Source: a virus (Duplodnaviria > Heunggongvirae > Uroviricota > Caudoviricetes). From it: DNA of 16,976 nt. Positions 1,516 to 16,393 of this stretch are shown here, one piece after another. How positions within the stretch are numbered: position 1 is the stretch's first letter; each line of letters starts with the position of its first letter. Both the position numbers and the translations under genes were made by a program. Below the pieces are notes generated by a model. It ran no database searches, was not told the origin of the DNA, and saw only the letters and a program-made list of their open reading frames with translations. The DNA is taken from the IMG/VR virus record IMGVR_UViG_2913112809_000005, one strand, 5' to 3'.

Positions 1516-1971
1516 TTACGGATGGGATTGCCAGCTACTTACTAAGGCATACAAGTGATTTGGTGAGTATCGCCAGCTATCTTTTAATTGCAGGAATTCA
1601 GCACAAAACTCACTGCAAAACAGGCGATCGCGCTGTTCTTTATTGCCGGTGATAATTCCTAAGGCTCCGCGCCAGTCATAGCGTTTGCCATCATGTTTAC
1701 GGAAAAAAGCTTCCACATCCTGAAGATTGGCCTGGAGCGGTAGCATATCCCACTTGTCTGGAGGTAATGGCATTATCTTTCCCCGAACGCCTCGATCGCG
1801 CAGAGATGCGGAGTAACAAAGGTAACTCTTTTCGCCATGTACTACGGCTAATTCACAGTGGGAATAACTACCACGTGTGATTTTGCGTGTAAGCCAGTCA
1901 GCCAGTCTCGCAATACCCCGGTGCTCTGTTCGGCCCTTATAACAAGCGAGCCAGACAGTGGTTTTACTCAT
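1516..1971 (-). CDS. YiiX/YaeF-family (DUF830) permuted papain-fold protein, putative amidase/peptidase; no signal peptide
   Basis: 151-aa ORF translationally coupled to the upstream fibre-chaperone gene (4-nt overlap). Has the His-then-Cys permuted order with motifs SYSHCELAV, GKRYDWRGA and LFCSEFCAEF, matching from memory the YSH, KPYDF and CSE motifs of E. coli YiiX/YaeF. Last gene before the operon terminator. Confidence 0.55.
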   Translation of the reverse strand: MSKTTVWLACYKGRTEHRGIARLADWLTRKITRGSYSHCELAVVHGEKSYLCYSASLRDRGVRGKIMPLPPDKWDMLPLQANLQDVEAFFRKHDGKRYDWRGALGIITGNKEQRDRLFCSEFCAEFLQLKDSWRYSPNHLYALVSSWQSHP

Positions 1972-2573
1972 GGTTGCCAGCCTGTGGAGTAATCGTAGTC
2001 GAGCACCGCCTGAATATCGTCCAGAGCTTCCACTGCTGCGATATGGCGCTGGGCGTTGGCGAACAAGCGCATATCGTGATCCATTGTTACCGATTCAAAC
2101 TGGGCAGCGATTTCGTTGGTTAACTCGATCAGACCGTGGTTTTTGGTCTGCCACATTAAACCTGCCGGGATCTGCTTCGCCAGGCCCATTTTGGTTAACG
2201 ACATCTGCTGGATACGGCTGTTTGTATCACTGTGGAAGTGATGGTTATTGATGATGATGTAGTCTACCGTTATTTCATCTCGTCGATTTTTTATTTCCTG
2301 TGTAACCTGGGTCTTGGTATTCTCTAGTGCAATGGTAAATAACGTTTTGTCATATACCCATTTATCATTCTCTAAGATATAAAAGTTATCCGGAGGTGGT
2401 GTGGTGATAATTTTGAATGGGTCAAGACATATCCAGCAGATATTATCCTTTAATTTCCATTGCTCATCATTTACTGGTATTACCGAGTCCAGTAACACAA
2501 CATTTAATAAAGAATCGTCTATCCAGTCAATAACTTCAAAAGTTACTGGATTGTAATATGCATATTGTGTCAT
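1968..2573 (-). CDS. Putative tail-fibre assembly/chaperone protein (position-based call; C-terminal half possibly DUF4376-like)
   Basis: 201-aa ORF starting 4 nt after the tail-fibre stop on the same strand, the canonical position for a fibre chaperone. 5' half is visibly AT-rich and 3' half GC-rich, suggesting mosaic origin. Confidence 0.45.
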   Translation of the reverse strand: MTQYAYYNPVTFEVIDWIDDSLLNVVLLDSVIPVNDEQWKLKDNICWICLDPFKIITTPPPDNFYILENDKWVYDKTLFTIALENTKTQVTQEIKNRRDEITVDYIIINNHHFHSDTNSRIQQMSLTKMGLAKQIPAGLMWQTKNHGLIELTNEIAAQFESVTMDHDMRLFANAQRHIAAVEALDDIQAVLDYDYSTGWQP

Positions 2574-2577
2574 ATTT

Positions 2578-4131
2578 TCACCATGATATTTTTACAAAGC
2601 CATCTGAGCCGCGTCCGCCGGAAAAAGATGCTGATGTTTGATTATTTGCTGCACTACCACCAGCACCACCGGCACCATAACCAACGGCATTACCTCCGTT
2701 AGAAAGGGCTAAACCAATCCCCCCTAGGCCATATAGTGAATTCATTCCATTCCCACCAGGAGCAGAGTGTTGGTCAACCATGGTATTCCCACTACCGTTT
2801 CCACCTGTTCCCCCGTAAGCTACGCTGTCAGCAAATGATGAGTTCCCGCCTTGCATGCCATCTGAGGCATGAACATTCCAAAGAATACCTCCAGTTGATC
2901 CCATCTTTGATTCTAATTTTCCCCCTTGACCACCTACACCTCCCGCTCCGACAGTGACAGCGTAATTTGTTCCTGGAATGACTGTGACTATTGATAATTT
3001 TGTTTCTCCGCATTGACCGCCAAAACCCTGCGTACTATATGGAAAACCAGAGTTGCCTTTTGCGTATCCACCGCCACCGCCACCGCCTCCGCCACCGAGC
3101 ATTTCTATAAAAAGTAAGGACACCCCATCAGGAACAGTAAACGTTCCATTGGTGGTAAAGAACTGGATGTGAGAATTCGTTGACCTACTATATGCAGCAT
3201 TAGCCTTATCTATTGCCGCCTTCACCGCGCTCGGTGTCGCCGCCTCCGTCGTACTGTTGCTATCCGTCGCGTTATTAAGCTTCACAATCCCTTTTTGTGT
3301 CAGGGTACCATCCGGAACACCCGTAATCTGTCCCCAGGGATGCGTATGACTACCCGCAGCTTTACTATTCGCCAGGTCATACGCCGCCTTAACCGCGCTC
3401 GGTGTTGCCGCCTCTGTCGTGCTGTTGCTATTGGTTGCGTTATTAAGCTTCACAATCCCTTTTTGCGTCAGCGTACTATCTGGTATATCAGTAATCTGAC
3501 TCCAGGTATGACGATGATTTCGAGCCTCAATCATTGCCGCTTTCACCGCTTTTGGCGTAGCCGCTTTGGTTTCGTCATCACTGTCAGTGGCGTTACTCAA
3601 CTGTGTAAAGCCTTTTTGCGTTAACGTAGCATCAGGATGATTAGTCGAACGCTCATGTTCATCCAGTTGTGAATCAACATAATCCCGTGTTGCCAGTACA
3701 ATACTGGGGTCAACGGTGAGTGTTACCGCAGCCGTGTTGGACACTTCCATAATGAGACGAATGCAAACTTGCTTACCGCAGCCGCCGGGTAATAGCGGTT
3801 TATACGATTCCGGGAATTTACCGATAGCGATCAATTCACCATCAGTATCATAAACGCCAACTTCACGTACATACCAGCCGCCGATATTTTCGGGCAGCAC
3901 GAGTTCCGCAATTAACCAGTTAGGGTTATTTGGTGCAACTGTTAATGTATTTAAATCACCGCGCCATACTTCATGGCGTAATTTAGTTTGGCTGACGGTG
4001 GGTTCATAATATTGTCCTCCGCTGTCGCCAACAGCCATTTTTTGTAGATGAAGCTGTTTTTTATCCGCCAGAGCATTGGCAATTTTTGCCATTCCCCTGT
4101 CGGTGAGTAGAGTATAAAACTCATTATCCAT
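2578..4131 (-). CDS. Tail fibre protein (P2 gpH-like N-terminal baseplate-attachment domain, tandem fibre repeats, glycine-rich C-terminal tip)
   Basis: 517-aa ORF. N-terminus (MAVGDSGGQYYEP...HEVWRGDL...IAELVLPENIGGWYVREVGVYD...ESYKP) matches the conserved P2 gpH / Mu S N-terminal domain. Three tandem repeats of TLTQKG(I/F)..L.NAT.S...EAATP.AVKAA follow. C-terminal about 180 aa is extremely Gly-rich, including a run of 10 Gly. Confidence 0.85.
   Translation of the reverse strand: MDNEFYTLLTDRGMAKIANALADKKQLHLQKMAVGDSGGQYYEPTVSQTKLRHEVWRGDLNTLTVAPNNPNWLIAELVLPENIGGWYVREVGVYDTDGELIAIGKFPESYKPLLPGGCGKQVCIRLIMEVSNTAAVTLTVDPSIVLATRDYVDSQLDEHERSTNHPDATLTQKGFTQLSNATDSDDETKAATPKAVKAAMIEARNHRHTWSQITDIPDSTLTQKGIVKLNNATNSNSTTEAATPSAVKAAYDLANSKAAGSHTHPWGQITGVPDGTLTQKGIVKLNNATDSNSTTEAATPSAVKAAIDKANAAYSRSTNSHIQFFTTNGTFTVPDGVSLLFIEMLGGGGGGGGGGYAKGNSGFPYSTQGFGGQCGETKLSIVTVIPGTNYAVTVGAGGVGGQGGKLESKMGSTGGILWNVHASDGMQGGNSSFADSVAYGGTGGNGSGNTMVDQHSAPGGNGMNSLYGLGGIGLALSNGGNAVGYGAGGAGGSAANNQTSASFSGGRGSDGFVKISW
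3068..3097 (-). repeat. Imperfect hexanucleotide (GGTGGC/CCGCCA)n tract encoding a Gly10 run inside the tail fibre gene
   Basis: Plus strand reads ccaccgccaccgccaccgcctccgccaccg; on the coding strand this is GGT GGC GGA GGC GGT GGC GGT GGC GGT GGA. Confidence 0.8.
3185..3640 (-). repeat. Three tandem, diverged 150-170 bp repeats inside the tail fibre gene (phage tail-fibre repeat units)
   Basis: Near-identical DNA blocks are visible (e.g. ccgcgctcggtgtcgccgcctccgtcgt...ttattaagcttcacaatccctttttgtgtcag versus ccgcgctcggtgttgccgcctctgtcgt...ttattaagcttcacaatccctttttgcgtcag). The protein shows three copies of the TLTQKG...EAATPSAVKAA unit. Confidence 0.8.
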
Positions 4132-4133
4132 AA

Positions 4134-4781
4134 TTACTCCGGGTAAATAGATGTAATTTCAAGGCTCCATTGCCCTGTTCCGTAATAAATCGATGTGTTG
4201 TGCTGTACTTCCCGTATCTGGAAAGGTAAAACCGTCGTCAGTTCACCACCATAAAGTGCACAGCCAATAACAGGAATAGCACTTTGGTTAATGATCCAGA
4301 CGATTAATGCTTCCAGTTTTGAACGTGTGTTTTTATATTCATGAATGAGTTCTACCAAATCATTGAAAAGGTTTTCATCCATACCTTTATCCACCAGCTC
4401 TATATCCACCTTAAAAAAATAAGCCCTTCCCCCATATTCAAACCATTCTGAAATAGTTCCGGGTAATGAGAGTATTTCCAGCACCCGCCGCACCGCCCAA
4501 ATTGTTCCTTTATATTTATGCAGTTCAATGGCTTGTTTAATTAACTCGCGTTTCTCCCGCTCATCGGTGGTAAATAACCAACCTTCCAGCCCCTGAACGT
4601 GAAATTGTTCTGCAAGGGCTGGTAATGCCGAAGCATCAACCAGGTCGACCAGATAAACCATCAACGCCGTCAGATCGAGTTGGGCAAAACGCTCGGCGGC
4701 GATGTTTGCCAGAATGGAAAAACGCTCATCGCTGGCAAGCGGCGGCGGTGGCAGCAATTTATCCATCGCTGACTCCGGCAA
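4134..4781 (-). CDS. Baseplate protein, P2 gpI family (Mu gp48-like)
   Basis: 215-aa ORF with the characteristic N-terminal LLPPP..S....LA motif of gpI-family proteins; sits between gpJ and the tail fibre. True start may be the internal Met at about 4766 (MDKLLPPPP), which would remove the overlap with gpJ. Confidence 0.8.
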   Translation of the reverse strand: MPESAMDKLLPPPPLASDERFSILANIAAERFAQLDLTALMVYLVDLVDASALPALAEQFHVQGLEGWLFTTDEREKRELIKQAIELHKYKGTIWAVRRVLEILSLPGTISEWFEYGGRAYFFKVDIELVDKGMDENLFNDLVELIHEYKNTRSKLEALIVWIINQSAIPVIGCALYGGELTTVLPFQIREVQHNTSIYYGTGQWSLEITSIYPE

Positions 4782-5874
4782 TCGTGACGTCTATTGCGGT
4801 GCATTCCGCCCACTCATGCGCCTGCAAAATACGTTTTGTAGGCATATTCAGCGCAACGTCATAGACGCCATCGACCTGTAACACTTTGATTATCTGGTTT
4901 GGCACAATGTCCTGCCCCAGATGTTTCTGCCGCTGTTGCGTCCAGAGGCTAATCGCTTTACGCGCCGCAGCCAGCGTTGTCTCCTGATCGGCGGTGGTAA
5001 ACAGCATTAGCTGCGCACGGATCTCATACGGCACTCGAAGAGCGCATTTCGCACTCACTTTGTCGGTCAGCGGACGTTTTTTCTCCTTGCTAACCTCCTG
5101 TTCAATTTGCGCGAGCAGTTCCACTCCCGGCAGACCATTCAGCGTTAGCGGGTAGATCTCCACGCAGCCTTCTGGCAATCCCTCGTCCGGCCCCAGTACT
5201 GAAACGTCAATAATCGACTGGCTAACAGAAAGCGTATGGAAGCGGTATGCGCCATAGCTGCCCGCATTACTAAAGCTTTCTGGTGCCAGTTGGATACGCT
5301 GGCGCAATGCGTCATCGCTCTCTTCACCGCAGCCGCCCGTTGACGCAGTCAGGTTGGTTACGTTGATGTCATAATGACCAATCCTGTCGACCAGTGCGCT
5401 AATTTGTGCAGGCTGCCAGCCGTTACCCTGTTCACCTGCTGCGAGGCTGGTGGCAGGAACGGCGATATGCAAACTCCTGGCCGGAAGCAGAACATCTTCA
5501 TCGGTGGCGAACATCACGCTATCAGAGGCACTGGCCCGCGTCCCCTGGGGAATCAGGATATTGCTGGTATACGCACTGACGACCGAAAACTGCAACGTCG
5601 TTTTTGCCGGTTGTGCAGGCAAACGGTGAACGCCCACCAGCTCCCCTAAATAATCCAGCATTGGCGCGCGGGAATACGCGACCAGGTTTTGTTTCGCCGC
5701 TTCCTGAATGGCGATGCGTACAAGGTTTTCACGATAGGCAAACAGGTCGATGAGCAACCGCTCAGCCTGTGCAGGATAGAGTTTTTTACCGCTGGCATCT
5801 TCGTATTGCGCAATCATCTCACTGGTAATTTGCGCTGGATCGCGGTCAATAAAATTGGGTTCGGCTATCGCCAT
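4759..5874 (-). CDS. Baseplate protein, gpJ family (Mu gp47-like, T4 gp6-like wedge)
   Basis: 371-aa ORF in the conserved position between gpW and gpI; size and order match Baseplate_J proteins; overlaps both neighbours in the operon. Confidence 0.8.
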   Translation of the reverse strand: MAIAEPNFIDRDPAQITSEMIAQYEDASGKKLYPAQAERLLIDLFAYRENLVRIAIQEAAKQNLVAYSRAPMLDYLGELVGVHRLPAQPAKTTLQFSVVSAYTSNILIPQGTRASASDSVMFATDEDVLLPARSLHIAVPATSLAAGEQGNGWQPAQISALVDRIGHYDINVTNLTASTGGCGEESDDALRQRIQLAPESFSNAGSYGAYRFHTLSVSQSIIDVSVLGPDEGLPEGCVEIYPLTLNGLPGVELLAQIEQEVSKEKKRPLTDKVSAKCALRVPYEIRAQLMLFTTADQETTLAAARKAISLWTQQRQKHLGQDIVPNQIIKVLQVDGVYDVALNMPTKRILQAHEWAECTAIDVTIAGVSDG

Positions 5875-6224
5875 AACACCTCCGTTGAGTTGATTACGCC
5901 GTCAGCGGCGCGCCATTGCACACGTAACGTCAGATGTTCACCGTCGATTACAGGTGTCACCTTCAGCAACCGACAGCGCGGTTCCCACTGGCGAATGGCT
6001 TCCACCGACTCCCGTACCACATGCGGGATTGCCCGCTCGATGGGGTAATCGATGTAGTGCCACAAATTGCTGCCAAACAGCGGTCTGTGGGGATCACTGC
6101 CGCGCGGTGTACGCAGAATGATGTGTATTGCCTGGTGAATATCATCCAGTCCGCAGACGTATTTTTCAGGCCGCTGCAAGGCCGGTTGCCAGTGCAGCGT
6201 TGAGGGTCGTGTTTTTGTGTTCAT
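5865..6224 (-). CDS. Baseplate protein, GPW/gp25 family
   Basis: 119-aa ORF of the size and position of P2 gpW / T4 gp25 / Mu gp46 homologues, between the spike and gpJ. Confidence 0.75.
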   Translation of the reverse strand: MNTKTRPSTLHWQPALQRPEKYVCGLDDIHQAIHIILRTPRGSDPHRPLFGSNLWHYIDYPIERAIPHVVRESVEAIRQWEPRCRLLKVTPVIDGEHLTLRVQWRAADGVINSTEVLWR

Positions 6225-6297
6225 GAGGGTATTTTCGCCCTGAACGGGCTGCGGGGATATTAAAGCGATTTAGAAAACTGATTGATTAAAAAGAGAA

Positions 6298-6317
6298 AAC
6301 CCGCCATCAGGCGGGTT
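6298..6317 (-). terminator. Intrinsic terminator/attenuator between gpV and gpW
   Basis: 8-bp GC-rich stem AACCCGCC-tgat-GGCGGGTT, 5 nt downstream (minus strand) of the gpV TGA stop at 6323-6325, followed on the minus strand by TTCTCTTTTTAATCAATCAGTTTTCT. Confidence 0.6.
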
Positions 6318-6322
6318 AAACG

Positions 6323-7024
6323 TCAGTGTGAATGGTGGTTGGAGTTGCCACCGCTGTCCTGCAATGCGCCGCTGGCCTGAACGTTGCCGATCACGTTGAC
6401 ATTGCCAGTTATTGTGGCGGCGTTACCGATGCCTCCACTTCCTGCCATCCCGCCAAGCCAGGTGAGTTTTTTCATTACCGTCACGTTACCAGTAAAGGTG
6501 CTCATGGGCGCATCTACCGTCACTGCTGCCGCTTTAACATCGACCTTAGTGGCGTCGATGCTGACATCGGTCGCTTTAACATCGACAGTATCGGAAGTCA
6601 CGATGACCTGTTGGGCTTTAATCTCAACGTTGGGCGATGTCAGGCTGGTACGGTCGATAACCTCAATCACGATTTTCTCGATACCGCCGTTAATCGTCAG
6701 CTGGTGCGTGCTGCGGTCATATTCAAACGCTGCGCCATCAGAAAACTGGACGTAACGTTTATCGCGCGAGGCCACAGGCGCGGTGTCAACCGTAGAATAA
6801 ACTGCGCCCAGCACCACGCCATCTTCACCGTTATTGTCCAGCAGAACTTCCACTTGCTCGCCCATATCCGGTAGCCAGTAGTCTTTATTGTCCTGGGAAT
6901 TGCGTTGAAGTACCGCAAGCCAGTTGCTCTTCAGATTGTCACACTCCGGAAGCGTGACTCGCACCCGAACGCTGGTTTCGTCAATATCGCTGATAATCCC
7001 CGTTTGCCGGGTTACTCCTTTCAT
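6323..7024 (-). CDS. Baseplate central spike, gpV family (Mu gp45-like), with His-rich C-terminal tip
   Basis: 233-aa ORF with an N-terminal OB-fold-like region and a C-terminal repetitive beta-helix-like segment (VDVKATDVSIDATKVDVKAAAVTVDA), ending ...GGNSNHHSH. AGGAGG RBS 7-12 nt upstream. Confidence 0.8.
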   Translation of the reverse strand: MKGVTRQTGIISDIDETSVRVRVTLPECDNLKSNWLAVLQRNSQDNKDYWLPDMGEQVEVLLDNNGEDGVVLGAVYSTVDTAPVASRDKRYVQFSDGAAFEYDRSTHQLTINGGIEKIVIEVIDRTSLTSPNVEIKAQQVIVTSDTVDVKATDVSIDATKVDVKAAAVTVDAPMSTFTGNVTVMKKLTWLGGMAGSGGIGNAATITGNVNVIGNVQASGALQDSGGNSNHHSH

Positions 7025-7033
7025 ATTTCCTCC

Positions 7034-8074
7034 TTACTGGCTGGTCGCTGGCCCGCGCGACACGTCGATTTCAGTGGTATAGCCGCTGCGCACAAAACTG
7101 TGAGTCGATTTATCAATCAGCCACTGACCGGAAAGCACGCCAAAATCGGTCAGTTCAATTTTATTGCCCGCCGTCAGATCCGGGCAGCCCATCATTGTGA
7201 GCGTTCCGGTTTGCTGATATTCGTTGTGGCTGTCGAGTGCAGCGTTGGCCTTTGCCTGTGCTGCGCCAACGTCCGTCGCCCGACTGTTCAGTTTTAGCGT
7301 GTCGGCACTGGTGCCGACTCCACGGGCAGACGGTTTTTGCTGGCTGTCGTGAGTGTAGATAACCAGTTCTTTTTTCTTACTATTTTGATGCTGTACGGTG
7401 GCGTTTTTGTAGATACGGTTAATGGTATCTTTGAAGGTGAAATGCGAAACGTCTTTGCGGTTGATCTTTTTAACCGACGCCAGGCAGCGCAGCGTGGGTA
7501 AATGCGAAAAAATCAGCTCTTTGGTGCTCACCTTTACTGCATAGCCATATTCGCAGGCCAGGCGCTTGAGAAATCCAACATCGGTTTCGCCGTACTGTGT
7601 CACCCGGTCAATCGTCAGCGGCTCGATTTTGCCCACCAGCTTTAGGCCGTGAGTTTGTGCGATACGGCTGGCGATAGCCGAAAGCGTCGTTTCTTCAAAA
7701 CCCTGGCTGTTACGGGTGCGCAGCGCCTGATTGACGGAAGTGGCGATGCCATCAATATTTACCGTAGAAGGTGGCGCTGAAATGTCGATTTTATCAATAA
7801 TATACTGACCACAATCGAGCAGCTTTTCCCCCTGATAACCCATATGCAGCGCCAGCGTATCGCCTTTGCCGGGATACCACTCTTTTATCCAGCGTCCATC
7901 AGTGTCATCCAGTGTAATTGCGATGGTATCTGACTCGTTTTTGATGCTGTCGTGGTAACTGATGCTGGTGACATAGGGTGTGATGTCATAAGTGATATCT
8001 TTATGCCCATACCAGAGGGTAAAAATGGGCGTGAGTGTGGCAAAGACGCCACCAGTTACGCTTATCTCAGCCAT
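7034..8074 (-). CDS. Baseplate hub protein, P2 gpD family (late control gene D protein; Mu gp44-like)
   Basis: 346-aa ORF of the size and position of gpD/gp27-like hub proteins, directly before the spike. Confidence 0.8.
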   Translation of the reverse strand: MAEISVTGGVFATLTPIFTLWYGHKDITYDITPYVTSISYHDSIKNESDTIAITLDDTDGRWIKEWYPGKGDTLALHMGYQGEKLLDCGQYIIDKIDISAPPSTVNIDGIATSVNQALRTRNSQGFEETTLSAIASRIAQTHGLKLVGKIEPLTIDRVTQYGETDVGFLKRLACEYGYAVKVSTKELIFSHLPTLRCLASVKKINRKDVSHFTFKDTINRIYKNATVQHQNSKKKELVIYTHDSQQKPSARGVGTSADTLKLNSRATDVGAAQAKANAALDSHNEYQQTGTLTMMGCPDLTAGNKIELTDFGVLSGQWLIDKSTHSFVRSGYTTEIDVSRGPATSQ

Positions 8075-8274
8075 GGTGGGATCTCCGATAAGGTTTTATT
8101 GACGGAAATGACCGGAATAATGAGCTGAATACCGGAAGGCAGCACCGGGTAAATGGCGACATGTGGATTGGCGGCGATTATGCGTTCATAAGCCAGCGCA
8201 TCACCGTAGTAATGCCATGCCAGATTATCCCAGCGTTCGCTGTCGGTGGTGATATGTTCAAGGTATCGCATCAC
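8062..8274 (-). CDS. Tail protein X (P2 gpX family, LysM-like)
   Basis: 70-aa ORF containing the conserved gpX motif (WD.LA..YYGD....E.II.ANP); ATGA-type overlap with the upstream gpU-like gene. Confidence 0.75.
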   Translation of the reverse strand: MMRYLEHITTDSERWDNLAWHYYGDALAYERIIAANPHVAIYPVLPSGIQLIIPVISVNKTLSEIPPWLR

Positions 8275-9224
8275 CAGCTCCTCGTAATGGTCGCGGCAGC
8301 AAACTGGCTCACTGTGGGAGTGGTTTGTTGTACCGTTGTTCGTGCCTGATCAACCAACGTTGCGGCTTTATCGAACGTCGCTTGGGCGATGCCGCTGGTA
8401 ATGTCGTCGAAAAGCGCCTGAGCATGGTCAACCAGCGTACTGGCGTCATTGGCGCAGTCCCGGATACCTGGCATGTTACCCAGTAAAGCTTTAATCTGCG
8501 CCGACAACGCTTTTGGGAGTCCTGCCAGCGTTTGCAGATCCGTTGGCTGTTTAAACAGGGTTTCGATGGCGTCGATTGTCTTTTTCAATGACGTAATTAT
8601 CTTTTCACACTTTTCTTTTAACGCTTTGGCCTCTTTAATCATTGCTTTCACTTTTGCCACCGTTTTTTTAATATCTTCAATGGCTTGTGTCAGTTCATCC
8701 AGCATCTCTTTGGCCTTACGCATACCTTCTTCAATGGCGTTTAATATCTGATCAAACCAGGACTCCACCATGTCGGGAAAATTGCTCGCCTTTTCCTCAA
8801 TGTTAGGCTCCTGGGTGGTAATCGCCGGAGGTAAAAGTGGATTTTTAGGATCGCCGGTGTACTCCTGGAGCGACATCGTTCCGTTTTGGGCAATCACATT
8901 GCCCCAGGGATCGGTGTGCTGGTGGGTGGCGGTTAGCTCTGTAATTACAAACCAGCCGCGATAATCGCCATTGCCAAATACCAGTGCCATCGCCTTGTGA
9001 GCAAGCATGGCTTCACGCAGTCGATTCAGCTCTGTTGTGGGCTGGCAAAACTGGCTGTGCAGGGAAAATTCCAGCGCCAGTATATCCAGCTTATCGCCAA
9101 TAAACTGCACGCCGGGCTTGCCTTCTATACGGGCATGTGTGGCGTAATCCACGCCCATTGTGCTTTTAAAGCCGTCCCAGAATGTGACAACCTTAAATTC
9201 AATCTCTCCTAAAACGGCATACAT
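8271..9224 (-). CDS. gpU-like tail protein with a roughly 175-aa C-terminal alpha-helical/coiled-coil extension
   Basis: 317-aa ORF. First about 140 aa follow the P2 gpU pattern (M..LG...F......F..........G.P..QF.G...D...L...L......L..L...........G.G...G.FVITEL). The remainder is Lys/Glu/Ala-rich with heptad-like periodicity (KAKEMLDELTQAIEDIKKTVAKVKAMIKEAKALKEKCEKI...). Stop/start overlaps the tape measure gene. Confidence 0.7.
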   Translation of the reverse strand: MYAVLGEIEFKVVTFWDGFKSTMGVDYATHARIEGKPGVQFIGDKLDILALEFSLHSQFCQPTTELNRLREAMLAHKAMALVFGNGDYRGWFVITELTATHQHTDPWGNVIAQNGTMSLQEYTGDPKNPLLPPAITTQEPNIEEKASNFPDMVESWFDQILNAIEEGMRKAKEMLDELTQAIEDIKKTVAKVKAMIKEAKALKEKCEKIITSLKKTIDAIETLFKQPTDLQTLAGLPKALSAQIKALLGNMPGIRDCANDASTLVDHAQALFDDITSGIAQATFDKAATLVDQARTTVQQTTPTVSQFAAATITRSW

Positions 9225-11584
9225 CAGGCATACCCCCGGCGCTGTTGTTGCGCCATTACGTCGTTAATTATTCTTTCCAGTTCGCGTTTACTCATCGTCA
9301 ACACGTTCTGAATCTCTTTAGTATTGTTTGGTCCGTTACCCTGCACGGTAATCTGTGGCGAAAAAGTCACCTGGACTTTTCCAGGGGAACGGGAGGGTAG
9401 CGTCGCCGGTTTGGTTACGGATTTATCTGGTAAAGAGGTCGACGCGAGTTTTGCGGCAGGCACTGATGACGGCGTTGTCGTTTTGCTGGATGGCGCGAGT
9501 TGTTTCCCCACTGGAGGCGTTAAAATCGCACCGGCAACGCCTGGAACAACGGTCGCGGGGGAGACTGAGGCAGAATTAGTGGTGCCTGTAGCAGCCGCAG
9601 CCGATCCTTCTGTGCTGATACCCATTGTGGATTTTAGCCAGTCTGGTATGGCGTTTTTGACCTGGTCAATAATGCCTTTCAGAGCGGGAAAAGCATTCAT
9701 TATGCCGTCAGCCAGGCTACCCAGTATATTGCTGCCGAACTCGCTAAAACTCGCAGGCATCTCAACACCAAACCAATTCATCACTCCGGCAAAGGCGCTG
9801 TAGAACAGCCCCAGTGGCGACCAGTCGCAAATCAAACGGCTAATACCAGCAATACCGCCATTAAAGGCCGTTGTGATACGCAGCCAGATGGCGGAAAAGA
9901 ACCTGGAGATAGGTTCCCAGTTGCGATAAATCAGATAAGCAGCGCCCGCAATCGCAGTGATGACCAGACCAATGGGATTCATCAATAACACCCGGCCTAG
10001 CGAGAGAACGGTTCGACCAACCAGTTTCAATGCTCCGAGCAGGCTACGACCAAGCAGTTGCGTTAGCCATTTTGCGCCGCCACCCAATGACTTAACCGCC
10101 GATAACACCTTACTCGCTGCGCCGCCGAGCGCCAGACTTGCCCTGACTTTCAGGAAGATATCGACCAGACGAATTAACGGCGAGGCGATGAAGTTCGCGC
10201 CCAGCTTTAAAACATTCAGCGCGCCGTTAAACAGCCAAATCGCCCCGACGATTTTCGCAATGTTTTGCACCAGCGCCGGGTGTTCACGTAGCCATGCGCT
10301 GAACTGGCGAACAACCGGAGTAAGGCTTTGCGCCAGCTCGCCAATCAGCGGCATTAATTGCAAGCCAATGCTGAGCCATAAATCATTTAACGCCAGCTGT
10401 AACGCTTTAGTTTGTTCAATGGGCGAGGCCATCTGCGCAGAAAAGTCAGCGTCAATCAGATTCTTACTGCTGGCTTGCATGGCAGAGGCTTTTAACTGGC
10501 GATATTCCTCCATATTCGCCAGCACAGGTGCCAGGAATTCCACTGTTTGCGCATCGCCGAACATTTCGCCCAGATTAAACTGCGTCACCATCGATTGCAG
10601 CGCAGTGCTGCGAGCAGATAAATCTTCAATCTTCATGGTGCGTTTGAAGGTGTCGAGGATCGCCGGATTCATCTTCTCAAGCTGCATTTGCACGATATGA
10701 GTCATGGCTTCGCTAACACCCATACCGTTTTGCTGATGCTCAAGCAGAGAACCTTGCAGATCAACGCCCTGGCTGGCGAACCAGTTATCGGTTTTTTTCG
10801 AAAAGGTGGTTTGCAGAAAGTGGTCGAAATTCTCCGCCGCCGCACTGGCACTGGCCCCGTTTTTTATGGCGATCTGCATGGTGGCGGTCAGTTCAGCCAT
10901 ACCTTCCAGACCCTGAGCGCCGATTTTACCTGCAAATTTCTCTATCCACTGCGTTTGTTCGGCAACGGCAGGCCCACCGCTTTTGCTAATGCCATACATC
11001 ATGTTTTGCGCGGCGTGGAAATTTTCTGGGGCAATATTCAGTCGATCATGAGTCGCGAGCGCGGCATTCGCCCACGTTTCAGCACTTTCGCGCGTGGCGG
11101 TGGCAGCTTTGGCGATCTCCGGCATATAACGGTTGAGATCCTGCATCGACGACAAATTGCCTTCGATCAGCGTTTGGGCTGCGTTCTGTAAGGTGGTCTG
11201 CTGCTGGTTAAAATCCATGCTCCAGCCGCGCAGATTAAGGCTGAGCGTCTCGCGGGTTGTAGCATTCATCCCACCTTTGGTCGCCATATTGACCATGTTG
11301 TCCTGGAACTCATATGGCAACTTCCAGTCGGGGGCTTCAACATTGAATACCTTGCTAAATTGCCCGGCAAATGTTTGGGTTTTCTCCATTAGATCAGCGC
11401 GGTTCCGGCTATTTTCCTCCAGGCGGAGAGCAGAATCGGCAAGTTGCTGCGTTAGTTTGATTACTGTCGCTTGCTGAGAAGAGAGAGCTAACAAAGTTCT
11501 GGCGTTGAGTGAGCCGTAACGGGCTATTGCCTGCGTCAACGTCTCATTACGCGCCTGAAGCTGGGTAATAATATCGTTGGCCAA
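9224..11584 (-). CDS. Tail tape measure protein
   Basis: 786-aa ORF, largely alpha-helical with internal hydrophobic segments, between the chaperone gene and gpU as in all long-tailed phages. Apparent initiator is TTG at 11584; the first in-frame ATG is about 66 codons in, so the exact start is uncertain. Confidence 0.85.
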   Translation of the reverse strand: MANDIITQLQARNETLTQAIARYGSLNARTLLALSSQQATVIKLTQQLADSALRLEENSRNRADLMEKTQTFAGQFSKVFNVEAPDWKLPYEFQDNMVNMATKGGMNATTRETLSLNLRGWSMDFNQQQTTLQNAAQTLIEGNLSSMQDLNRYMPEIAKAATATRESAETWANAALATHDRLNIAPENFHAAQNMMYGISKSGGPAVAEQTQWIEKFAGKIGAQGLEGMAELTATMQIAIKNGASASAAAENFDHFLQTTFSKKTDNWFASQGVDLQGSLLEHQQNGMGVSEAMTHIVQMQLEKMNPAILDTFKRTMKIEDLSARSTALQSMVTQFNLGEMFGDAQTVEFLAPVLANMEEYRQLKASAMQASSKNLIDADFSAQMASPIEQTKALQLALNDLWLSIGLQLMPLIGELAQSLTPVVRQFSAWLREHPALVQNIAKIVGAIWLFNGALNVLKLGANFIASPLIRLVDIFLKVRASLALGGAASKVLSAVKSLGGGAKWLTQLLGRSLLGALKLVGRTVLSLGRVLLMNPIGLVITAIAGAAYLIYRNWEPISRFFSAIWLRITTAFNGGIAGISRLICDWSPLGLFYSAFAGVMNWFGVEMPASFSEFGSNILGSLADGIMNAFPALKGIIDQVKNAIPDWLKSTMGISTEGSAAAATGTTNSASVSPATVVPGVAGAILTPPVGKQLAPSSKTTTPSSVPAAKLASTSLPDKSVTKPATLPSRSPGKVQVTFSPQITVQGNGPNNTKEIQNVLTMSKRELERIINDVMAQQQRRGYA

Positions 11585-11675
11585 AATTGTTTCTCTTTAA
11601 TTATTGATAATGGCCCACTGGTTATTTTTCTAAAAAAGGGGCTGGGAAGAAATAAACCTGGCGGGCTTTGAAGAA

Positions 11676-11698
11676 CTCGCAGACATCAGGTCTGCGAG
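11676..11698 (-). other. Strong stem-loop in the gpE-tape measure intergenic region
   Basis: Perfect 9-bp inverted repeat CTCGCAGAC-atcag-GTCTGCGAG; on the minus strand it encloses the stop codon (11686-11688) of the +1 frame that overlaps the 3' end of the gpE gene. Confidence 0.6.
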
Positions 11699-11773
11699 CC
11701 ATATTCGATCTTTATTTGGTCGCTGGCTTCATCCAGCCAGTTGCTAAAGTCATCTATGGTGAGCGCGTCTATC

Positions 11774-12091
11774 TCACTGGGTGGAAAGCGAAACCATCTC
11801 GCCAGTAGCGCCATTGCCTGCCATAGCTGGGGAGGATTCTGTAACCACGGTAAGCATGGATTGAAATCGTTTCTGCAATGCCTGGTAATCCAGCAAATCC
11901 ATTTCAGCTAAATCTTCTGGCACCAGTCCGGTCATCGCCGCCATTAGCGGTTCATCCCACTCTTCGGGTTTTTCGCTGATCCGGCGCGCGTTGCGCATAT
12001 CTTTTACTTTCAGGCGACGTAATTGCAGCGAGTCGATAGTATTTCCTGCTGCCGACGTAAATGGGAACTGTAAGATATAATGCTCTTTCAT
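11774..12091 (-). CDS. Tail assembly chaperone, P2 gpE family
   Basis: 105-aa acidic ORF between the tube and tape measure genes, the conserved position of the frameshifted chaperone pair. An alternative reading frame stays open past its stop (see findings). Confidence 0.7.
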   Translation of the reverse strand: MKEHYILQFPFTSAAGNTIDSLQLRRLKVKDMRNARRISEKPEEWDEPLMAAMTGLVPEDLAEMDLLDYQALQKRFQSMLTVVTESSPAMAGNGATGEMVSLSTQ

Positions 12092-12117
12092 TTTGTATCC
12101 TTATTTATGTTGCGAAG

Positions 12118-12137
12118 TTCGGGGCCGTAGCCCCGAA
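12118..12137 (-). other. Stem-loop immediately downstream of the tail tube gene
   Basis: 8-bp GC-rich inverted repeat TTCGGGGC-cgta-GCCCCGAA between the tube stop (12141-12143) and the gpE start (12091); no clear U-tract follows, so more likely an mRNA-processing/stability or partial-attenuation element than a full terminator. Confidence 0.45.
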
Positions 12138-12140
12138 TAA

Positions 12141-12665
12141 TTAGCCACCGATGTTATTGCGATAGGTACTTAATTGATCCACGCCGTTAACCCGAAAAAT
12201 ATTCGCCATATAATCAAGTTCAAGCAGCGTTTCACCATCGACCACTTGCTTAATATAAGTACAGCCAAAGGCGCTGCTGAATTCCGGGTTTTCATTCTGT
12301 TTAAATGTGCCCAGTGGATTCTTTTTAAACATCACGGTTAAATGTGTCACTAACGCTAATTGATTCGCTTTCCCCTGGGAGTTATAGCAATCAATACTGG
12401 AGCGGCACTGTAATGCTACCGCCTGCCACGGGTTTGCCGTTTTACGCATTACGTCCTGATAAAAGGAGTTCCATTTAATTTCCCCCTCCAGTTTATCGAA
12501 ACCAGCCGGGAGTTCGATTTTGCCGACCATACCCAGTGCCTTATGCTCTTGCATAATTAAACTGACATCAGGCAATTTAATTTCGGTTGCACGACCTAAA
12601 AGGTTATTACCATCGAGATAAATATTGGCGTTGGTAATACGGTTAATTTGAATTTTTCCAGCCAT
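12141..12665 (-). CDS. Tail tube protein (P2 FII family)
   Basis: 174-aa ORF; size and N-terminal pattern (N.N.YLDG...LG...EIKLP) match FII-type tube proteins; start overlaps the sheath stop. Confidence 0.8.
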   Translation of the reverse strand: MAGKIQINRITNANIYLDGNNLLGRATEIKLPDVSLIMQEHKALGMVGKIELPAGFDKLEGEIKWNSFYQDVMRKTANPWQAVALQCRSSIDCYNSQGKANQLALVTHLTVMFKKNPLGTFKQNENPEFSSAFGCTYIKQVVDGETLLELDYMANIFRVNGVDQLSTYRNNIGG

Positions 12666-14095
12666 TAGCTATTGCTCTCCAGAGAGACTAAATATTCAGA
12701 AGTAATTTCAGTTTCAAACGTCAGACGTTCCAGCGGCGGCGGCGGGGTGAATTTATAGCTCAGCAATAAATGACCGGCGCTGAGTTCAGCCGGTGAATTT
12801 CGTGCCGGATCGTACCAGCACTCAAAGCCAAGCAGTGCGCCGTCGGCAATTAGTTTTCGGCCCCAGGTATTTACCGATTCGGTCAGTGCGTCAATAATTG
12901 CCTGATTAATAGGCATATCAATATACTGCTGACTGAAATAACGGATTGACTCATTGATTACATCGCCTGTCCGGCGGACGTTTTCAAAGTTACGCATATG
13001 GGTCACGGTAGGCCATGCCGCTGTGCGGTTACCCCACAAGCGCAGACCAGAACCGTAACTATTGAAAATAGTGGTAATGCCGTTTTCGTTGAGCTGATTC
13101 ACTTCGCTTTGTGGATCATCAATCATTGCGGAAAGCGAACGTTCAATACCGGTAATACCCTGAATTTCCTGGTTTGAGTTGCTCCACCAGAAACCTTTTT
13201 CGAGGTCTACTTTGGCACGTAGCCCGGCAGCGCGCGAAGAGAGTGGTTCGAGAACTTCCTGGTTAGTGATGCCATCGTAAACTTTGACGTGTGGGTAACA
13301 TAAACGCACACGATCAGAGCTGGTATTGAAGTTGATAGCCCCTTGCGAACCGCGTCCAGCCAATACCTGCTGGAATGTCGTCCCAATCGGAGCATCAATG
13401 TAGGTAATCGCACCGAGTTTTTCCGCTTGTGCAATCAGCTCAGTAGTTACTGATTTTTGCGTACAAAACACGGGAGCAAGCAGGATTTTGGCGTAGAAAC
13501 CGTACAGGTTATAGGTGTCCTGAAGGAGTTTCATCCCCGTGCGGTCGCCTGCGGTATTTAGGGCACCGATAATATCGGCTGCGGTGACCTTTGTAGGGTC
13601 GCACCAGGAATAATAGGCGCAAACTTTCGCTCCAGGAGGAATGTCGGCTCCTTTACGAGTGATTATGCCTGTTTGTTCATCTACGCTAAATGCTGTGGTG
13701 TTAAAGGTTGATGAATTTGATGAAGAGGGCTTTAGTACCACGTTACGCACATTGCGGTGAGCGAGCTTCGCCTGGTTGTTAGCATCAAAAGTGATACTCT
13801 CATTGCTGATGCTGGAGCTATGTTTTGCCGGATCCAGCACGTTAATCACCACCACCGTACCGGCACCGTGGTCATAAATCGCCTTCAGTGCCTGTGGGAT
13901 CGTAAAGTTAGCCAGAGTCGAGCCAAACTGCGCAGCATCGCTTTCAGAAAGACATAATGTTGGTTTATTTACCGGACCACAGGGGGCCGTACCGATTAAA
14001 GCGATGACGGCGGATTTTACCGCTTTAACCGGACGAGGGCCGGTTTCAATTTCAATGGTTTCTACACCGTGCAGGTAATTAGCTGCCATGTACAA
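12665..14095 (-). CDS. Contractile tail sheath protein
   Basis: 476-aa ORF directly upstream of the tube gene; size and position are typical of myovirus sheath proteins (P2 FI / Mu L class). Confidence 0.85.
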   Translation of the reverse strand: MYMAANYLHGVETIEIETGPRPVKAVKSAVIALIGTAPCGPVNKPTLCLSESDAAQFGSTLANFTIPQALKAIYDHGAGTVVVINVLDPAKHSSSISNESITFDANNQAKLAHRNVRNVVLKPSSSNSSTFNTTAFSVDEQTGIITRKGADIPPGAKVCAYYSWCDPTKVTAADIIGALNTAGDRTGMKLLQDTYNLYGFYAKILLAPVFCTQKSVTTELIAQAEKLGAITYIDAPIGTTFQQVLAGRGSQGAINFNTSSDRVRLCYPHVKVYDGITNQEVLEPLSSRAAGLRAKVDLEKGFWWSNSNQEIQGITGIERSLSAMIDDPQSEVNQLNENGITTIFNSYGSGLRLWGNRTAAWPTVTHMRNFENVRRTGDVINESIRYFSQQYIDMPINQAIIDALTESVNTWGRKLIADGALLGFECWYDPARNSPAELSAGHLLLSYKFTPPPPLERLTFETEITSEYLVSLESNS

Positions 14096-14276
14096 TTTCC
14101 TCTACGTTATTTTGTTCTTCCTGAGTGATGACAGGAGTCAGATGATTGCGGGCAATCATGGTTATGACCCACTCGTTGTCTTCTGGCAGATCAATTTCAC
14201 TGTTCGGCCACAATAAGATTTCTTGTCCGTCGGCAAGGGTGACGCCGCTTGCCGGGCCGTTGTAGATGTATTTCAT
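14079..14276 (-). CDS. Small conserved tail-region protein (Mu gp38-like position)
   Basis: 65-aa ORF, coupled by a 4-nt overlap to the upstream gene and overlapping the sheath start. Confidence 0.45.
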   Translation of the reverse strand: MKYIYNGPASGVTLADGQEILLWPNSEIDLPEDNEWVITMIARNHLTPVITQEEQNNVEEIVHGS

Positions 14277-14728
14277 TCAGTTTCCTCGTAATTAACTTCC
14301 GTAAGCAGGGGAAGATCCGTGCTTTCCTGTTCAGCGATAAACAGCGAGCTGGTCGCCATTTCCAGGATGTAGCGGCAGAAACCGCCGCTCTCACCCGTAT
14401 TAATTTCTTTTTCAAGCCAAAGCAGACGATCGCAATCAGGAAGCTGAAGGCCACCCAATGCTCTGCGTATGCGATCAAGAGCGTTTAACGCGTCACAATT
14501 TTTGCCAACAATAACGGTGGCGGTTAAGCGGAGTATTTGCTGTTGCACGATGGCATCACTGCTTTCGGGCGTGGCAAAGAAAGAACCGCTATAATTAATA
14601 ATCACTGCAACTTGCTGTGTCTGTGGAATATATTTCTGGGCATCCGTAGCTGAAATAAATACGTCCATTTCGGGGTTGTGTTCACGTAATCTGGTCACAA
14701 CAGAATTCATTACAGATAAAATTTCCAT
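14273..14728 (-). CDS. Putative tail completion/terminator-type protein (Mu gp37 / DUF1834-like); first gene of the tail operon
   Basis: 151-aa ORF with an AGG-containing RBS upstream; position and N-terminal pattern (ME.L..M...VV.RL) recall Mu gp37-family proteins. Functional call is tentative. Confidence 0.45.
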   Translation of the reverse strand: MEILSVMNSVVTRLREHNPEMDVFISATDAQKYIPQTQQVAVIINYSGSFFATPESSDAIVQQQILRLTATVIVGKNCDALNALDRIRRALGGLQLPDCDRLLWLEKEINTGESGGFCRYILEMATSSLFIAEQESTDLPLLTEVNYEETE

Positions 14729-14842
14729 ATGGGTTGTACCTTAATTACCGCTCACTTCGTTATCGTTGAAATATATTCTGAAGCAGTGAAGGTGAAGAAT
14801 CTTTTAATGTAATTTAGAGAAAAAATTGAATGGCTATAAAAA

Positions 14843-14870
14843 ATCCCCACACTTACGTAAAGGTGGGGAT
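14843..14870 (-). terminator. Intrinsic terminator after the lysis cassette (potentially bidirectional)
   Basis: 8-bp stem ATCCCCAC...GTGGGGAT with an internally palindromic loop, beginning 4 nt after the TAA stop at 14875-14877; followed on the minus strand by TTTTTATAGCC and on the plus strand by GTATTTAATA. Confidence 0.7.
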
Positions 14871-14874
14871 GTAT

Positions 14875-15189
14875 TTAATAGCTGCCACGTTGTAACAGCT
14901 CGATTTTGCTATATAAGGCATCCAGCTTTGCTTCTAATACTGCTTGCCCACGAAGATAATCTTCTCTGCGGACATAATGCAGCGGAAGCTCGGCACGAAA
15001 TTCAAGAAACTCTCTTTCCAGTTTCGACCAACTTGTTTCTGATTCCCTGCGGGCATTTTCCAGAGACTCAAAACGCTCATTAAGTCGTTTTTCAATTTGC
15101 GCTAACAGCAGTTTTCCGGCAGCAAACATTAATCCAACGAAGGAAAGCATAAGGGAGATCACTTCCCAAAAATCGATACTGAGTTTCAT
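14875..15189 (-). CDS. Membrane-anchored coiled-coil protein, candidate spanin-like/lysis accessory protein
   Basis: 104-aa ORF with one N-terminal hydrophobic helix (FWEVISLMLSFVGLMFAAGKLLL) followed by a charged helical region; GAGGGG RBS; directly downstream of the lysin gene. Confidence 0.45.
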   Translation of the reverse strand: MKLSIDFWEVISLMLSFVGLMFAAGKLLLAQIEKRLNERFESLENARRESETSWSKLEREFLEFRAELPLHYVRREDYLRGQAVLEAKLDALYSKIELLQRGSY

Positions 15190-15201
15190 CGGCCCCTCTG
15201 A

Positions 15202-15807
15202 TTAGTGAAGACAGCTTGCCTGTCCCCAGAGTAAATAGCGGGCGGCGTGTAGATAGAGGATCATCTTTGGATAGCGACGATTTTCTCGCCAGTTAGCAGC
15301 GCTGCGCCCGGCGTTGACTCGCTCGACATGACCAAACCAGCTAGTGGCATCTAACCCTTTGGATGCAGCTAGTTTTTTATCCCGGTTAACCCACCCCTGA
15401 CCGCCGTTATAGGCGCTTAGGGTAAACGCCATACGCTGACAGTCATTTTTCGCAGAGATGTTTTTCCACAAATGCTGGTCATATTGCACCAGCGCGCGAA
15501 TCGCCCAGGTTGGGTTATACGGTTTGTTTTCACGCAATTGTGGATACAACTGGCTTATCCATGTCGCTGTAGCAGGCATAAATTGCGCCATACCTTGTGC
15601 GCCAACGGGGGAACGTACCATTGGCTGCCAGGCGGACTCCAGGTGTAATTGCCCGGCAAAGTCGGCCACTGGGGCATTCAGCCCCCAGACTTCTCGAGCG
15701 GTACGAATTAGTTCGTTTCGCCATGCCAGAGAGGCTCGCGGCGGTTCAGAGGCGTTAAGCGGGAAAAGAACGAAAATAATCATAGACGCGATATATTTCA
15801 GCCACAT
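15202..15807 (-). CDS. Lytic transglycosylase (SLT domain) lysin with N-terminal signal/SAR-like hydrophobic leader
   Basis: SLT catalytic motifs LHLESAWQP and AQGMAQFMP. Best start is ATG at 15807 (MWLKYIASMIIFVLFPLNA...), 2 nt after the stop of the upstream membrane-protein gene; the longer ORF to 15885 would overlap that gene by 76 nt. Confidence 0.7.
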   Translation of the reverse strand: MWLKYIASMIIFVLFPLNASEPPRASLAWRNELIRTAREVWGLNAPVADFAGQLHLESAWQPMVRSPVGAQGMAQFMPATATWISQLYPQLRENKPYNPTWAIRALVQYDQHLWKNISAKNDCQRMAFTLSAYNGGQGWVNRDKKLAASKGLDATSWFGHVERVNAGRSAANWRENRRYPKMILYLHAARYLLWGQASCLH

Positions 15808-15809
15808 CA

Positions 15810-16097
15810 CTATAGCCCTAAGGCGACGGAAAGACAGACGGCGGCAACGATGATGGCGCGGCGAATCATTGCCGCCGCGCAGCAACGCGGTTCCTTCCAG
15901 GGGCTAAAAGAGTCAGGCCGTGCCCAGGGGAACAAACTGCGATCGAGCCAGTATCCCAGCACCGCGGAAAGCGAAACCAGGCTTAGTTTATAAATGACGA
16001 CCGGGATCTGTGCTGAAGAGGTCCAGCCGATCACGACAAACAGCGCGACGGAAGCGACCAGCCAGCCGGAAAGCCGGGGAAAAGTGACTTTTTTCAT
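15810..16097 (-). CDS. Small membrane protein with 2-3 transmembrane segments, holin candidate
   Basis: 95-aa ORF with AGGAG RBS 8 nt upstream of the ATG; hydrophobic segments LVASVALFVVIGW, IPVVIYKLSLVSLSAVLGYWL and AIIVAAVCLSVALGL; first gene of the lysis cassette, directly before the lysin. Confidence 0.5.
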   Translation of the reverse strand: MKKVTFPRLSGWLVASVALFVVIGWTSSAQIPVVIYKLSLVSLSAVLGYWLDRSLFPWARPDSFSPWKEPRCCAAAMIRRAIIVAAVCLSVALGL

Positions 16098-16393
16098 ACG
16101 ATATCTCCTGATAAGTGAGCGTTTAGTGTCGTCAGAACCCTCCAGTGAAGAATGAAAAAAGCTTTAATAAATAAGTTTAAAAAATAGATTCTCTATAAAT
16201 GAACAAGCCCGCTAATAAATCGACTCATCAATTAAAGAGCAAAAGGTGACCTGGCGAATAAGCGCGTCATTATGCAGGGGAAAGATGATGGTGGATCGTA
16301 GGAATAGTCTATAGTTATTTGATTTTTAAAGTTTGTTTAAGAAAGTCAGCTACTGTGAGGGAAACGATCTTTTAACACTACAGGTAAAAATAA

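Follow-up and report, generated by a model that had tools for sequence, protein, structure and literature searches.

[quoted passage not shown] Since this helix meets the triplex, the chain that follows the gpU domain heads outward to the wedges. In phage Mu, gp43 (N, the 'DNA circularization protein'; PDB 9KI1) begins with a tube-like domain, which a flexible loop joins to a helix-rich domain. The latter has eight helices, includes a LysM module and is proposed by the authors to stabilise the connection between wedges and hub and to mediate contraction (Zhou et al., 2025, PMC11915804). The baseplate centerpiece of phage Milano, gp25 (PDB 8FQC), opens with a tube domain (residues 1-127); residues 141-345 form a helical domain bound to two neighbouring wedges, and residues 346-396 form a LysM (Sonani et al., 2024, PMC10811340). 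As described in that paper, the helical domain of pyocin R2 acts as wedge-joining 'glue' and leaves the baseplate on contraction. In the pyocin locus, a LysM 'glue' gene is described between the initiator and hub genes. Tube initiators with a helical wedge-binding domain are thus already known from Mu, Milano, phage 7-7-1 and pyocin R2.

We analysed a 16,976-nt stretch of viral DNA (IMG/VR record IMGVR_UViG_2913112809_000005; the window) that encodes a gpU-type protein with a long C-terminal extension, here termed gpU-long. At a probability of roughly 65%, we read gpU-long as the protein that initiates the tube (the baseplate centerpiece) in a contractile tail of the BcepMu type, with the helical extension lying between the wedges and gluing the hub to the wedge ring. 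The tail is of a mixed type, with P2-like tail genes in a Mu-like phage lineage (a Mu/P2 hybrid).

The gpU-long gene and its neighbourhood

On the minus strand, positions 8271-9224 hold a single ORF that starts with ATG and runs for 317 codons free of internal stops. The gene adjoins the tape measure gene on the downstream side of the latter and lies upstream of gpD, with gpX in between:

8271-9224, minus strand: gpU-long, probable tube initiator (baseplate centerpiece); complete ORF of 317 residues plus stop, spanned end to end by phrog_788 ('tail protein', profile length 297; E 5e-130)
8856-9224, minus strand: residues 1-123, tube-like (gpU) domain, expected to be hexameric, as a ring between hub (gpD) and tail tube (PF06995, E 1.2e-33; pLDDT >90; tube-initiator fold matches)
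8778-8855, minus strand: residues 124-149, Pro-rich flexible linker, its first part GDPKNPLLPPA conserved (alignment; low pLDDT)
8322-8777, minus strand: residues 150-301, hypervariable helical domain, a predicted four-helix bundle with a K/E-rich heptad part at residues 150-225 (periodicity; AlphaFold; about 22% identity to relatives)
8274-8321, minus strand: residues 302-317, conserved C-terminal candidate anchor helix, P303-TVSQFAAATIT-R315-SW (conservation of S306 and R315; motif counts)
8062-8271, minus strand: gpX, tail protein X, LysM-type 'glue' protein, apparently coupled to the gpU-long stop (PF05489, E 2.3e-22; RefSeq annotation)
9224-11584, minus strand: tape measure protein, its stop overlapping the gpU-long start (PF10145)
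7034-8074, minus strand: gpD-type baseplate hub, the expected seat of the tube initiator (PF05954 and phrog_52)
4134-6224, minus strand: gpW (5865-6224), gpJ (4759-5874) and gpI (4134-4781), sheath initiator and wedge 'triplex' (Pfam Baseplate_J and Tail_P2_I; gpW/gp25 annotation)

The start codon of gpU-long overlaps the tape measure stop codon by one base (TGATG at 9222-9226), and its own TGA overlaps the ATG of gpX by one base (TGATG at 8269-8273). Since both junctions are TGATG, they indicate translational coupling of the tape measure, gpU-long and gpX genes. The element around gpU-long carries only Mor, lysis and tail genes; head, terminase, transposase and DNA-handling genes are absent. 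A literature search for the element itself (STM42xx locus tags, E. coli tailocin at lysC) returned nothing relevant.

A reading of the DNA made from the sequence alone had described this ORF as a gpU-like protein, normally short in P2-type phages, that continues past the gpU domain with no intervening stop, and had suggested an added oligomerisation or regulatory domain or a gene fusion, with a sequencing error to be excluded. The gpU proteins of P2 (159 aa) and phiCTX (146 aa) are indeed short, gpU-long being about twice the size of the former, and the extension of about 180 residues (136-317) is uninterrupted. The question of whether orthologous loci encode one ORF or two, also posed there, was answered by genome comparison. 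Of 5426 complete E. coli genomes, 195 carry the gene over its full length (90-99% nucleotide identity), every copy being annotated as a single CDS of 954 nt, and the Salmonella orthologue (LT2 STM4210) likewise encodes 317 aa with no internal stops. A frameshift or missed stop that fused a short gpU to a downstream ORF might be suspected from phrog_18424 (122 aa), which corresponds to the C-terminal part alone, and from database fragments of 107-163 aa. However, the ORF has the same boundaries and length, free of internal stops, in Salmonella as in the 195 E. coli genomes, phrog_788 is a full-length family profile, and the fragments and 'short' forms are themselves frameshifted or partial. On these comparative data, such an artefact is excluded, its probability being negligible. 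As to fusion, the extension does represent an extra domain, of a known initiator class, but a recent or odd joining of genes does not fit a gene that is intact in so many genomes and has its own PHROG. The gpU-long ORF is real and intact, a normal though unstudied form that is neither an error nor an odd fusion, and the family has been in the databases since BcepMu gp45.

Domain content and predicted fold

Pfam places PF06995 (Phage_P2_GpU) on residues 6-123 (115.7 bits against a gathering cut-off of 27.5), covering profile positions 1-119 of 120. After approximately residue 140, Pfam gives only sub-threshold matches, to assorted coiled-coil-type families; no Pfam match to LysM or Phage_tail_X was found within the ORF, which ends at residue 317, nor one to DNA_circ_N (PF07157), and NCBIfam gave no match above cut-off. 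PDB sequence searches with the whole protein, the N-terminal domain alone, a profile of 30 family sequences (alignment A1) or a Pseudomonas relative returned compositional coiled-coil or MCP matches and no baseplate proteins. When the C-terminal 175 residues alone were used as query, only gpU-linked proteins and fragments were retrieved, with no other protein context, and BLAST of the helical domain against the window tape measure protein (best E 0.25), against itself for internal repeats, and against all other tail proteins gave nothing.

The extension had been called Lys/Glu/Ala-rich, helical and coiled-coil, with heptad-like spacing. The composition holds for residues 161-225 (K 21.5%, E 13.8%, A 12.3%, I 12.3%) but not for residues 226-317, which are rich in A, T, Q, L and D and contain 3% K. 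Similarly, a hydrophobic periodicity of 3.5 residues was clear for residues 141-230, being reached in 0 of 2000 shuffles, and weaker for residues 231-317, where a 3.6 periodicity was found (p = 0.001); the heptad register shifts within the extension. The helical character was borne out by structure prediction, which gives helices from residue 150 through 313. As to the coiled-coil description, heptad periodicity is present, but in the monomer model the helices fold back on one another as a four-helix bundle, so that an intramolecular bundle is predicted rather than an intermolecular coiled coil.

The structure was predicted by AlphaFold from an alignment of 59 diverse sequences (A3), which replaced a first run on a shallow alignment in which the N-terminal domain reached a pLDDT of 62.7 and Foldseek ranks were uninformative. 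In the A3 model the mean pLDDT is 83, with values >90 for the N-terminal domain and 70-90 for the helices. Strands extend up to residue 121, the linker (124-149) has a pLDDT of 56-61 with a dip below 50 at residues 136-138, and helices are predicted at 150-192, 196-225, 238-249, 251-273, 280-299 and 302-313. The N-terminal domain matches the folds of the tube initiators of Mu, Milano, pyocin R2, PVC, AFP, P1 and diffocin. For the whole model, the top four chains in a Foldseek search of the PDB were:

Mu gp43, 9ki1_0: E 4.8e-9 over 323 columns
Mu gp43, 9ki1_u: E 7.8e-9 over 343 columns
Milano, 8fqc_U1: E 9e-8 over 358 columns
Phage 7-7-1, 9rku_A1: E 1.6e-7 over 361 columns

These proteins are the only solved tube initiators with a helical domain after the tube domain, and in all of them this bundle lies between baseplate wedges. 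Initiators that match by the tube domain only rank lower, at 1.9e-6 or worse over about 130-150 columns.

The significant heptad periodicity of residues 141-230 could also be read as an intermolecular coiled coil in the tube lumen, beside the tape measure protein. Weak PHROG matches to tape-measure families point the same way, as does the fact that no other parts of the tail module diverge as fast as the tape measure protein and the extension. However, these PHROG matches reach only E 1e-3 to 1e-2 and are compositional, the extension has no similarity to the tape measure protein of the window, and the model is an intramolecular bundle. Moreover, in the P2, Mu, Milano and eCIS initiators the chain after the tube domain runs outward to the wedges. 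A location in the lumen is therefore highly improbable.

Conserved ends and a variable middle

To sample the family, residues 1-135 were searched against 1.84 billion cluster representatives, of which 970 clusters matched with an E-value no higher than 1e-3. In the 150 best of these, the gpU domain stands at the N-terminus with few exceptions and lengths are bimodal, with 48 at 160-219 aa and 69 at 280-319 aa; by the count in these best 150, members of this gpU subfamily are most often of the long form. Long forms, measuring 288-327 aa, occur widely across Enterobacterales, and a long gpU is found in phages BcepMu (gp45, 296 aa), phiE255, Klebsiella KP12, Ralstonia YO107_2, Pseudomonas Komp_PAO1_1 (289 aa) and Pasteurella AFS-2018a (310 aa), as well as within complete Mu-like prophages that carry Mu F, Gp36, Com and Mom. 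Relatives of 185-194 aa annotated as 'phage protein U' were considered as instances of domain loss and rejected, being frameshifted copies of a 294-aa gene. Natural gpU-long::gpX fusions of 364 aa also occur (P0079, P0081 and P0097); the two proteins can therefore be one chain, which would fit a particle in which the C-terminus of gpU lies next to the N-terminus of gpX.

By the Nei-Gojobori method, comparison with a diverged E. coli copy gave a dN/dS of 0.024 for residues 1-135 and 0.28 for residues 136-317, clearly pointing to purifying selection on the extension, albeit with less constraint than on the N-terminal domain. Alignments A1 and A3 divide the protein into a highly conserved N-terminal domain, a conserved Pro-rich linker, a hypervariable middle and a conserved last helix. 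The linker consensus, E-Y-x-G-D-P-K-x-P-L-x-P-P-A at residues 121-134, includes G124, D125, P126, K127, P129, L130, P132, P133 and A134 as invariant or near-invariant positions. At the other end, A1 shows no variation at S306 or R315, and only five positions, R315 among them, are invariant across the 59 diverse sequences of A3. A consensus anchored on the terminal Arg, P-x-L-(A/S)-x-L-A-A-x-(V/I)-(A/I)-T-R-(R/S)-x-end, is present in 64 of 82 long forms compared with 11% of control (background) windows.

The region between these ends varies in sequence, charge and length. It is K/E-rich in gpU-long and D/E-rich in P0038 and P0039, while that of P0050 is S/A/Q-rich; in length, Salmonella variants differ by in-frame deletions of 28-29 aa and P0039 by an insertion of 22 aa. 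Relative to a Salmonella Mu-like prophage, the helical middle is about 22% identical, the tape measure protein (30%) being the only other part so diverged; the gpU N-terminal domain is 66% identical, the sheath 77%, the tube 82%, gpW 79%, gpJ 78%, gpD 65% and gpX 61%. In the short forms, a P/A/K-rich, presumably disordered stretch of about 45 aa replaces the helical region, which is about 170 aa in the long forms. By eye, most short forms end in I-(V/T)-R, though a stricter four-residue pattern is found in only 13 of 55. Such an arrangement, in which a variable spacer leads to a conserved motif at the C-terminus, is what one would expect of a tether that docks by its end.

This pattern raises the alternative that the extension is a length-tolerant tether with little structure-specific function, in which only the C-terminal anchor helix matters and the bundle fills space. 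It would account for the replacement of the bundle by disordered sequence in short forms that keep the I-(T/V)-R end, for bundles only about 22% identical between tails whose other proteins are 52-82% identical, for the switches in composition, and for the tolerated in-frame deletions. Set against these are the dN/dS well below 1, the helical fold predicted at pLDDT 70-90 from a diverse alignment, and the prevalence of long forms, which are the larger length class (69 of the best 150 representatives); in addition, the equivalent Mu and Milano domain has extensive wedge contacts (PMC11915804; PMC10811340). We consider a mere tether unlikely, although the extreme sequence turnover of the bundle and the natural 28-29-aa deletions suggest that it makes few specific contacts, which fits a spacer as well as a precise 'glue'. 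A more speculative idea, which we regard as distinctly unlikely, is that the middle between tube domain and anchor helix is an exchangeable, fast-evolving cassette, which takes the form of a disordered linker in some proteins and of a K/E-rich, D/E-rich or S/A/Q-rich four-helix bundle in others. Such a cassette might tune the contraction trigger through its length and charge, or might determine assembly specificity, acting against subunit mixing among co-resident tails such as those of the domesticated tail-only element and Mu-like prophages; in transposable-phage relatives it might additionally protect DNA ends as a Mu N-type module.

Proposed role and comparison with known initiators

With gpU-long as a wedge-binding tube initiator, six N-terminal domains would assemble on the trimeric gpD hub as a tube-like ring that seeds polymerisation of the tube, by homology to P2 gpU, Mu gp43 and others. 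After the Pro-rich linker, the C-terminal 170 residues would form a helical bundle projecting outward and downward between the hub and the wedges, where it would lodge between adjacent gpJ/gpI wedge complexes. The conserved anchor helix with the invariant Arg would end the bundle, and both the helix and R315 may serve in docking. In the primed state the bundle, together with the separate LysM protein gpX, would act as glue between hub and wedge ring; opening of the wedge ring upon fibre binding would release the bundle, which thereby may set the threshold for sheath contraction. Beyond the domain architecture, conservation pattern, purifying selection, synteny and fold similarity established here for gpU-long, the wedge location, the glue and trigger function and the docking by the terminal helix and R315 are extrapolated from the baseplates solved for Mu, Milano, pyocin R2 and P2. 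Likewise, gpW, gpJ and gpI are the presumed partners of the helical domain, based on the Mu, Milano and P2 structures, and the contacts of gpU-long with gpJ, gpI and gpX are deduced by analogy.

Given that the nearest whole-length structural match is Mu gp43, historically N, the 'DNA circularization protein', the helical domain might instead, or also, be a Mu N-like module that binds and circularises DNA, injected with the genome of a transposable phage and protecting and joining its ends. The occurrence of long gpU in BcepMu, phiE255 and complete Mu-like prophages (Mu F, Gp36, Com, Mom) would fit this role. However, the window copy is in a tail-only element (no head, terminase or transposase) and is still intact and under purifying selection. 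Conversely, the Mu-like transposable Pseudomonas phage Bise (transposase, Gam, Mor) has a short, 204-aa gpU with a disordered spacer. Additionally, the helical domain is net acidic (-4) with no basic patch, and the P0038 and P0039 variants are strongly acidic. A DNA-end function is hence improbable, though it may apply to relatives in complete transposable prophages.

The role of wedge-binding tube initiator would improve the annotation of thousands of entries currently named 'phage tail protein', 'chemotaxis protein' or 'methyl-accepting chemotaxis protein', which become readable as tube initiators with a wedge-binding helical domain. The comparison also shows that the helical 'glue/ripcord' module has been joined to either end of the gpU tube domain, following it in gpU-long, Mu and Milano and preceding it in pyocin R2, which may be useful for engineering tailocin triggers, though no long-standing question is opened. 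What is modestly new here is a PF06995-type initiator with the helical domain on the C-terminal side and the LysM split off, the conserved terminal anchor motif that short forms share with long ones, and a middle region that turns over like a cassette.

Among the simplest relatives, the P2 and phiCTX gpU proteins share the Pfam family and the tube-initiator role of gpU-long, and their C-terminus exits the ring towards the wedge triplex. However, they have a single short C-terminal helix and no helical bundle, the triplex in P2 is engaged by three of the six copies, and, unlike the window, neither phage has a gpX gene between gpU and gpD. The eCIS initiators Afp7 and Pvc7 have a tube-like N-terminal domain as does gpU-long (fold matches at E 1e-5 to 1e-4), but in these proteins LysM directly follows the tube domain and a large helical bundle is absent.

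The locus order of pyocin R2 and BcepMu, namely tape measure, initiator, LysM gpX-type gene and hub, is the order found in the window. The pyocin R2 'ripcord' PA0626 (PDB 6U5B), which was recovered from a viral-contig locus, nonetheless has its helical part at the N-terminus (aa 1-125) and its tube domain at aa 159-286, the reverse of gpU-long with its tube domain at aa 1-123. This assignment comes from P2 gpU, the only one of the PDB sequence queries to reach PA0626, which aligns to residues 159-286 of 290 in chain 6u5b_h (E 3e-13). Direct comparison of the helical parts of PA0626 and gpU-long showed no significant similarity. We note that Sonani et al. place the pyocin helical domain at the C-terminus of the tube domain, with which the PA0626 sequence alignment disagrees (PMC10811340).

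Milano gp25 and the phage 7-7-1 protein (9RKU) have a tube domain followed by a helical bundle, as does gpU-long, and their bundle lies in the groove between two wedges. The Milano helical domain is longer (205 aa, eight helices), is fused to a LysM (aa 346-396) and is linked by disulfides to a wedge protein, and no sequence similarity of gpU-long to Milano gp25 or the 7-7-1 protein was detected.

Mu gp43 occupies the same slot as gpU-long, between the tape measure and a gpD-like hub, has the same domain order and is the best whole-length fold match, both proteins coming from Mu-related phage lineages. The Mu protein differs in its length (495 aa), in carrying LysM inside the helix-rich domain, which in the window is the separate gene gpX, and in the family of its N-terminal domain (PF07157 for Mu, PF06995 for gpU-long); a DNA-circularisation role is documented for Mu N only. 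Direct sequence comparison of gpU-long with Mu gp43 gave no significant match and no similarity in the helical part, and in an hhalign comparison of A3 with the Mu N family alignment (A2) the match was colinear over the N-terminal domains only (E 0.0033, probability 9.8%). BLAST of gpX against the Mu gp43 C-terminus also was not significant, and the LysM equivalence therefore rests on the published structures. By this comparison, gpU-long and gpX may in effect be a two-gene version of the single Mu gp43 or Milano gp25 polypeptide, with its tube domain, helical domain and LysM, and the pair can be read as a split equivalent of either. As such, gpU-long, whose function we infer from these systems, would be nothing out of the ordinary within a known class, apart from a small twist in its architecture.

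A tail-only element at lysC

The long gpU belongs to a cluster that spans nearly all of the window, and the same element was found at an E. coli locus (L001) and in Salmonella SARB27 (L031).

Window 1516-16976: tail-only element, whole cluster; also at L001 and L031
L031 11932-15085: STM4204-4206, encoding a GtrA-like protein, a group-2 glycosyltransferase (bactoprenol glucosyl transferase) and a large membrane protein

Besides a complete contractile-tail and fibre module, the window element encodes a Mor activator, a holin, an SLT endolysin, a small membrane protein and Gp37, with no head, terminase or transposition genes between 1516 and 16976. The element adjoins lysC in both E. coli S10 and Salmonella (LT2 STM4199-STM4219), and is carried, with ORFs intact, by 195 of the 5426 complete E. 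coli genomes. It appears to derive from a BcepMu-type prophage and to have become a domesticated, tailocin-like element; a literature search found no paper on it. In the Salmonella copy, the STM4204-4206 genes sit between gpV and gpW, whereas these two genes are directly adjacent in the window (5865-7024).

Fibre end and diverged tail genes

The tail fibre gene and the two genes after it are as follows.

Window 2578-4131 (-): tail fibre; P2-like collar at the N-terminus, fibre repeats, glycine-rich domain (PF21722) at the C-terminus
Window 1968-2573: DUF4376 assembly protein, after the tail fibre
Window 1516-1971: unannotated 151-aa ORF, after the tail fibre and DUF4376 genes

The 151-aa ORF had no match in Pfam. 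Elsewhere in the tail module, a gap of ~190 nt (window 11585-11773) separates the Phage_TAC_7 chaperone gene from the tape measure gene; at the equivalent position in BcepMu, a frameshifted chaperone extension is annotated.

Upon comparison with related prophages, the tape measure protein (9224-11584) and the gpU helical domain (8322-8777) were by far the most diverged, at ~30% and ~22% identity, respectively, while the remaining tail proteins were 52-82% identical. This pattern may reflect co-divergence, or just low constraint on helical proteins.

Names, domain order and fusions among the homologues

Members of the long-gpU family are frequently labelled "chemotaxis protein" or "methyl-accepting chemotaxis protein" in databases, and relatives of Mu N "multidrug DMT transporter permease". 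These names are probably misannotations, plausibly caused by helical or low-complexity similarity.

We also considered the pyocin R2 ripcord, encoded on a viral contig.

L008 3527-4399: PA0626, pyocin R2 ripcord

As judged from its sequence, the helical part of PA0626 is N-terminal and the gpU tube domain occupies aa 159-286; in the wording of one structural paper, the pyocin R2 helical domain is fused to the tube domain's C-terminus.

Three homologues of the long gpU (P0079, P0081 and P0097), from Salmonella and metagenomic clusters, are naturally occurring read-through fusions, 364 aa in length, in which long gpU is joined to gpX (PF06995 and PF05489), the LysM-type tail protein encoded separately downstream in the window. 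These fusions recreate the single-chain arrangement of Mu and Milano.
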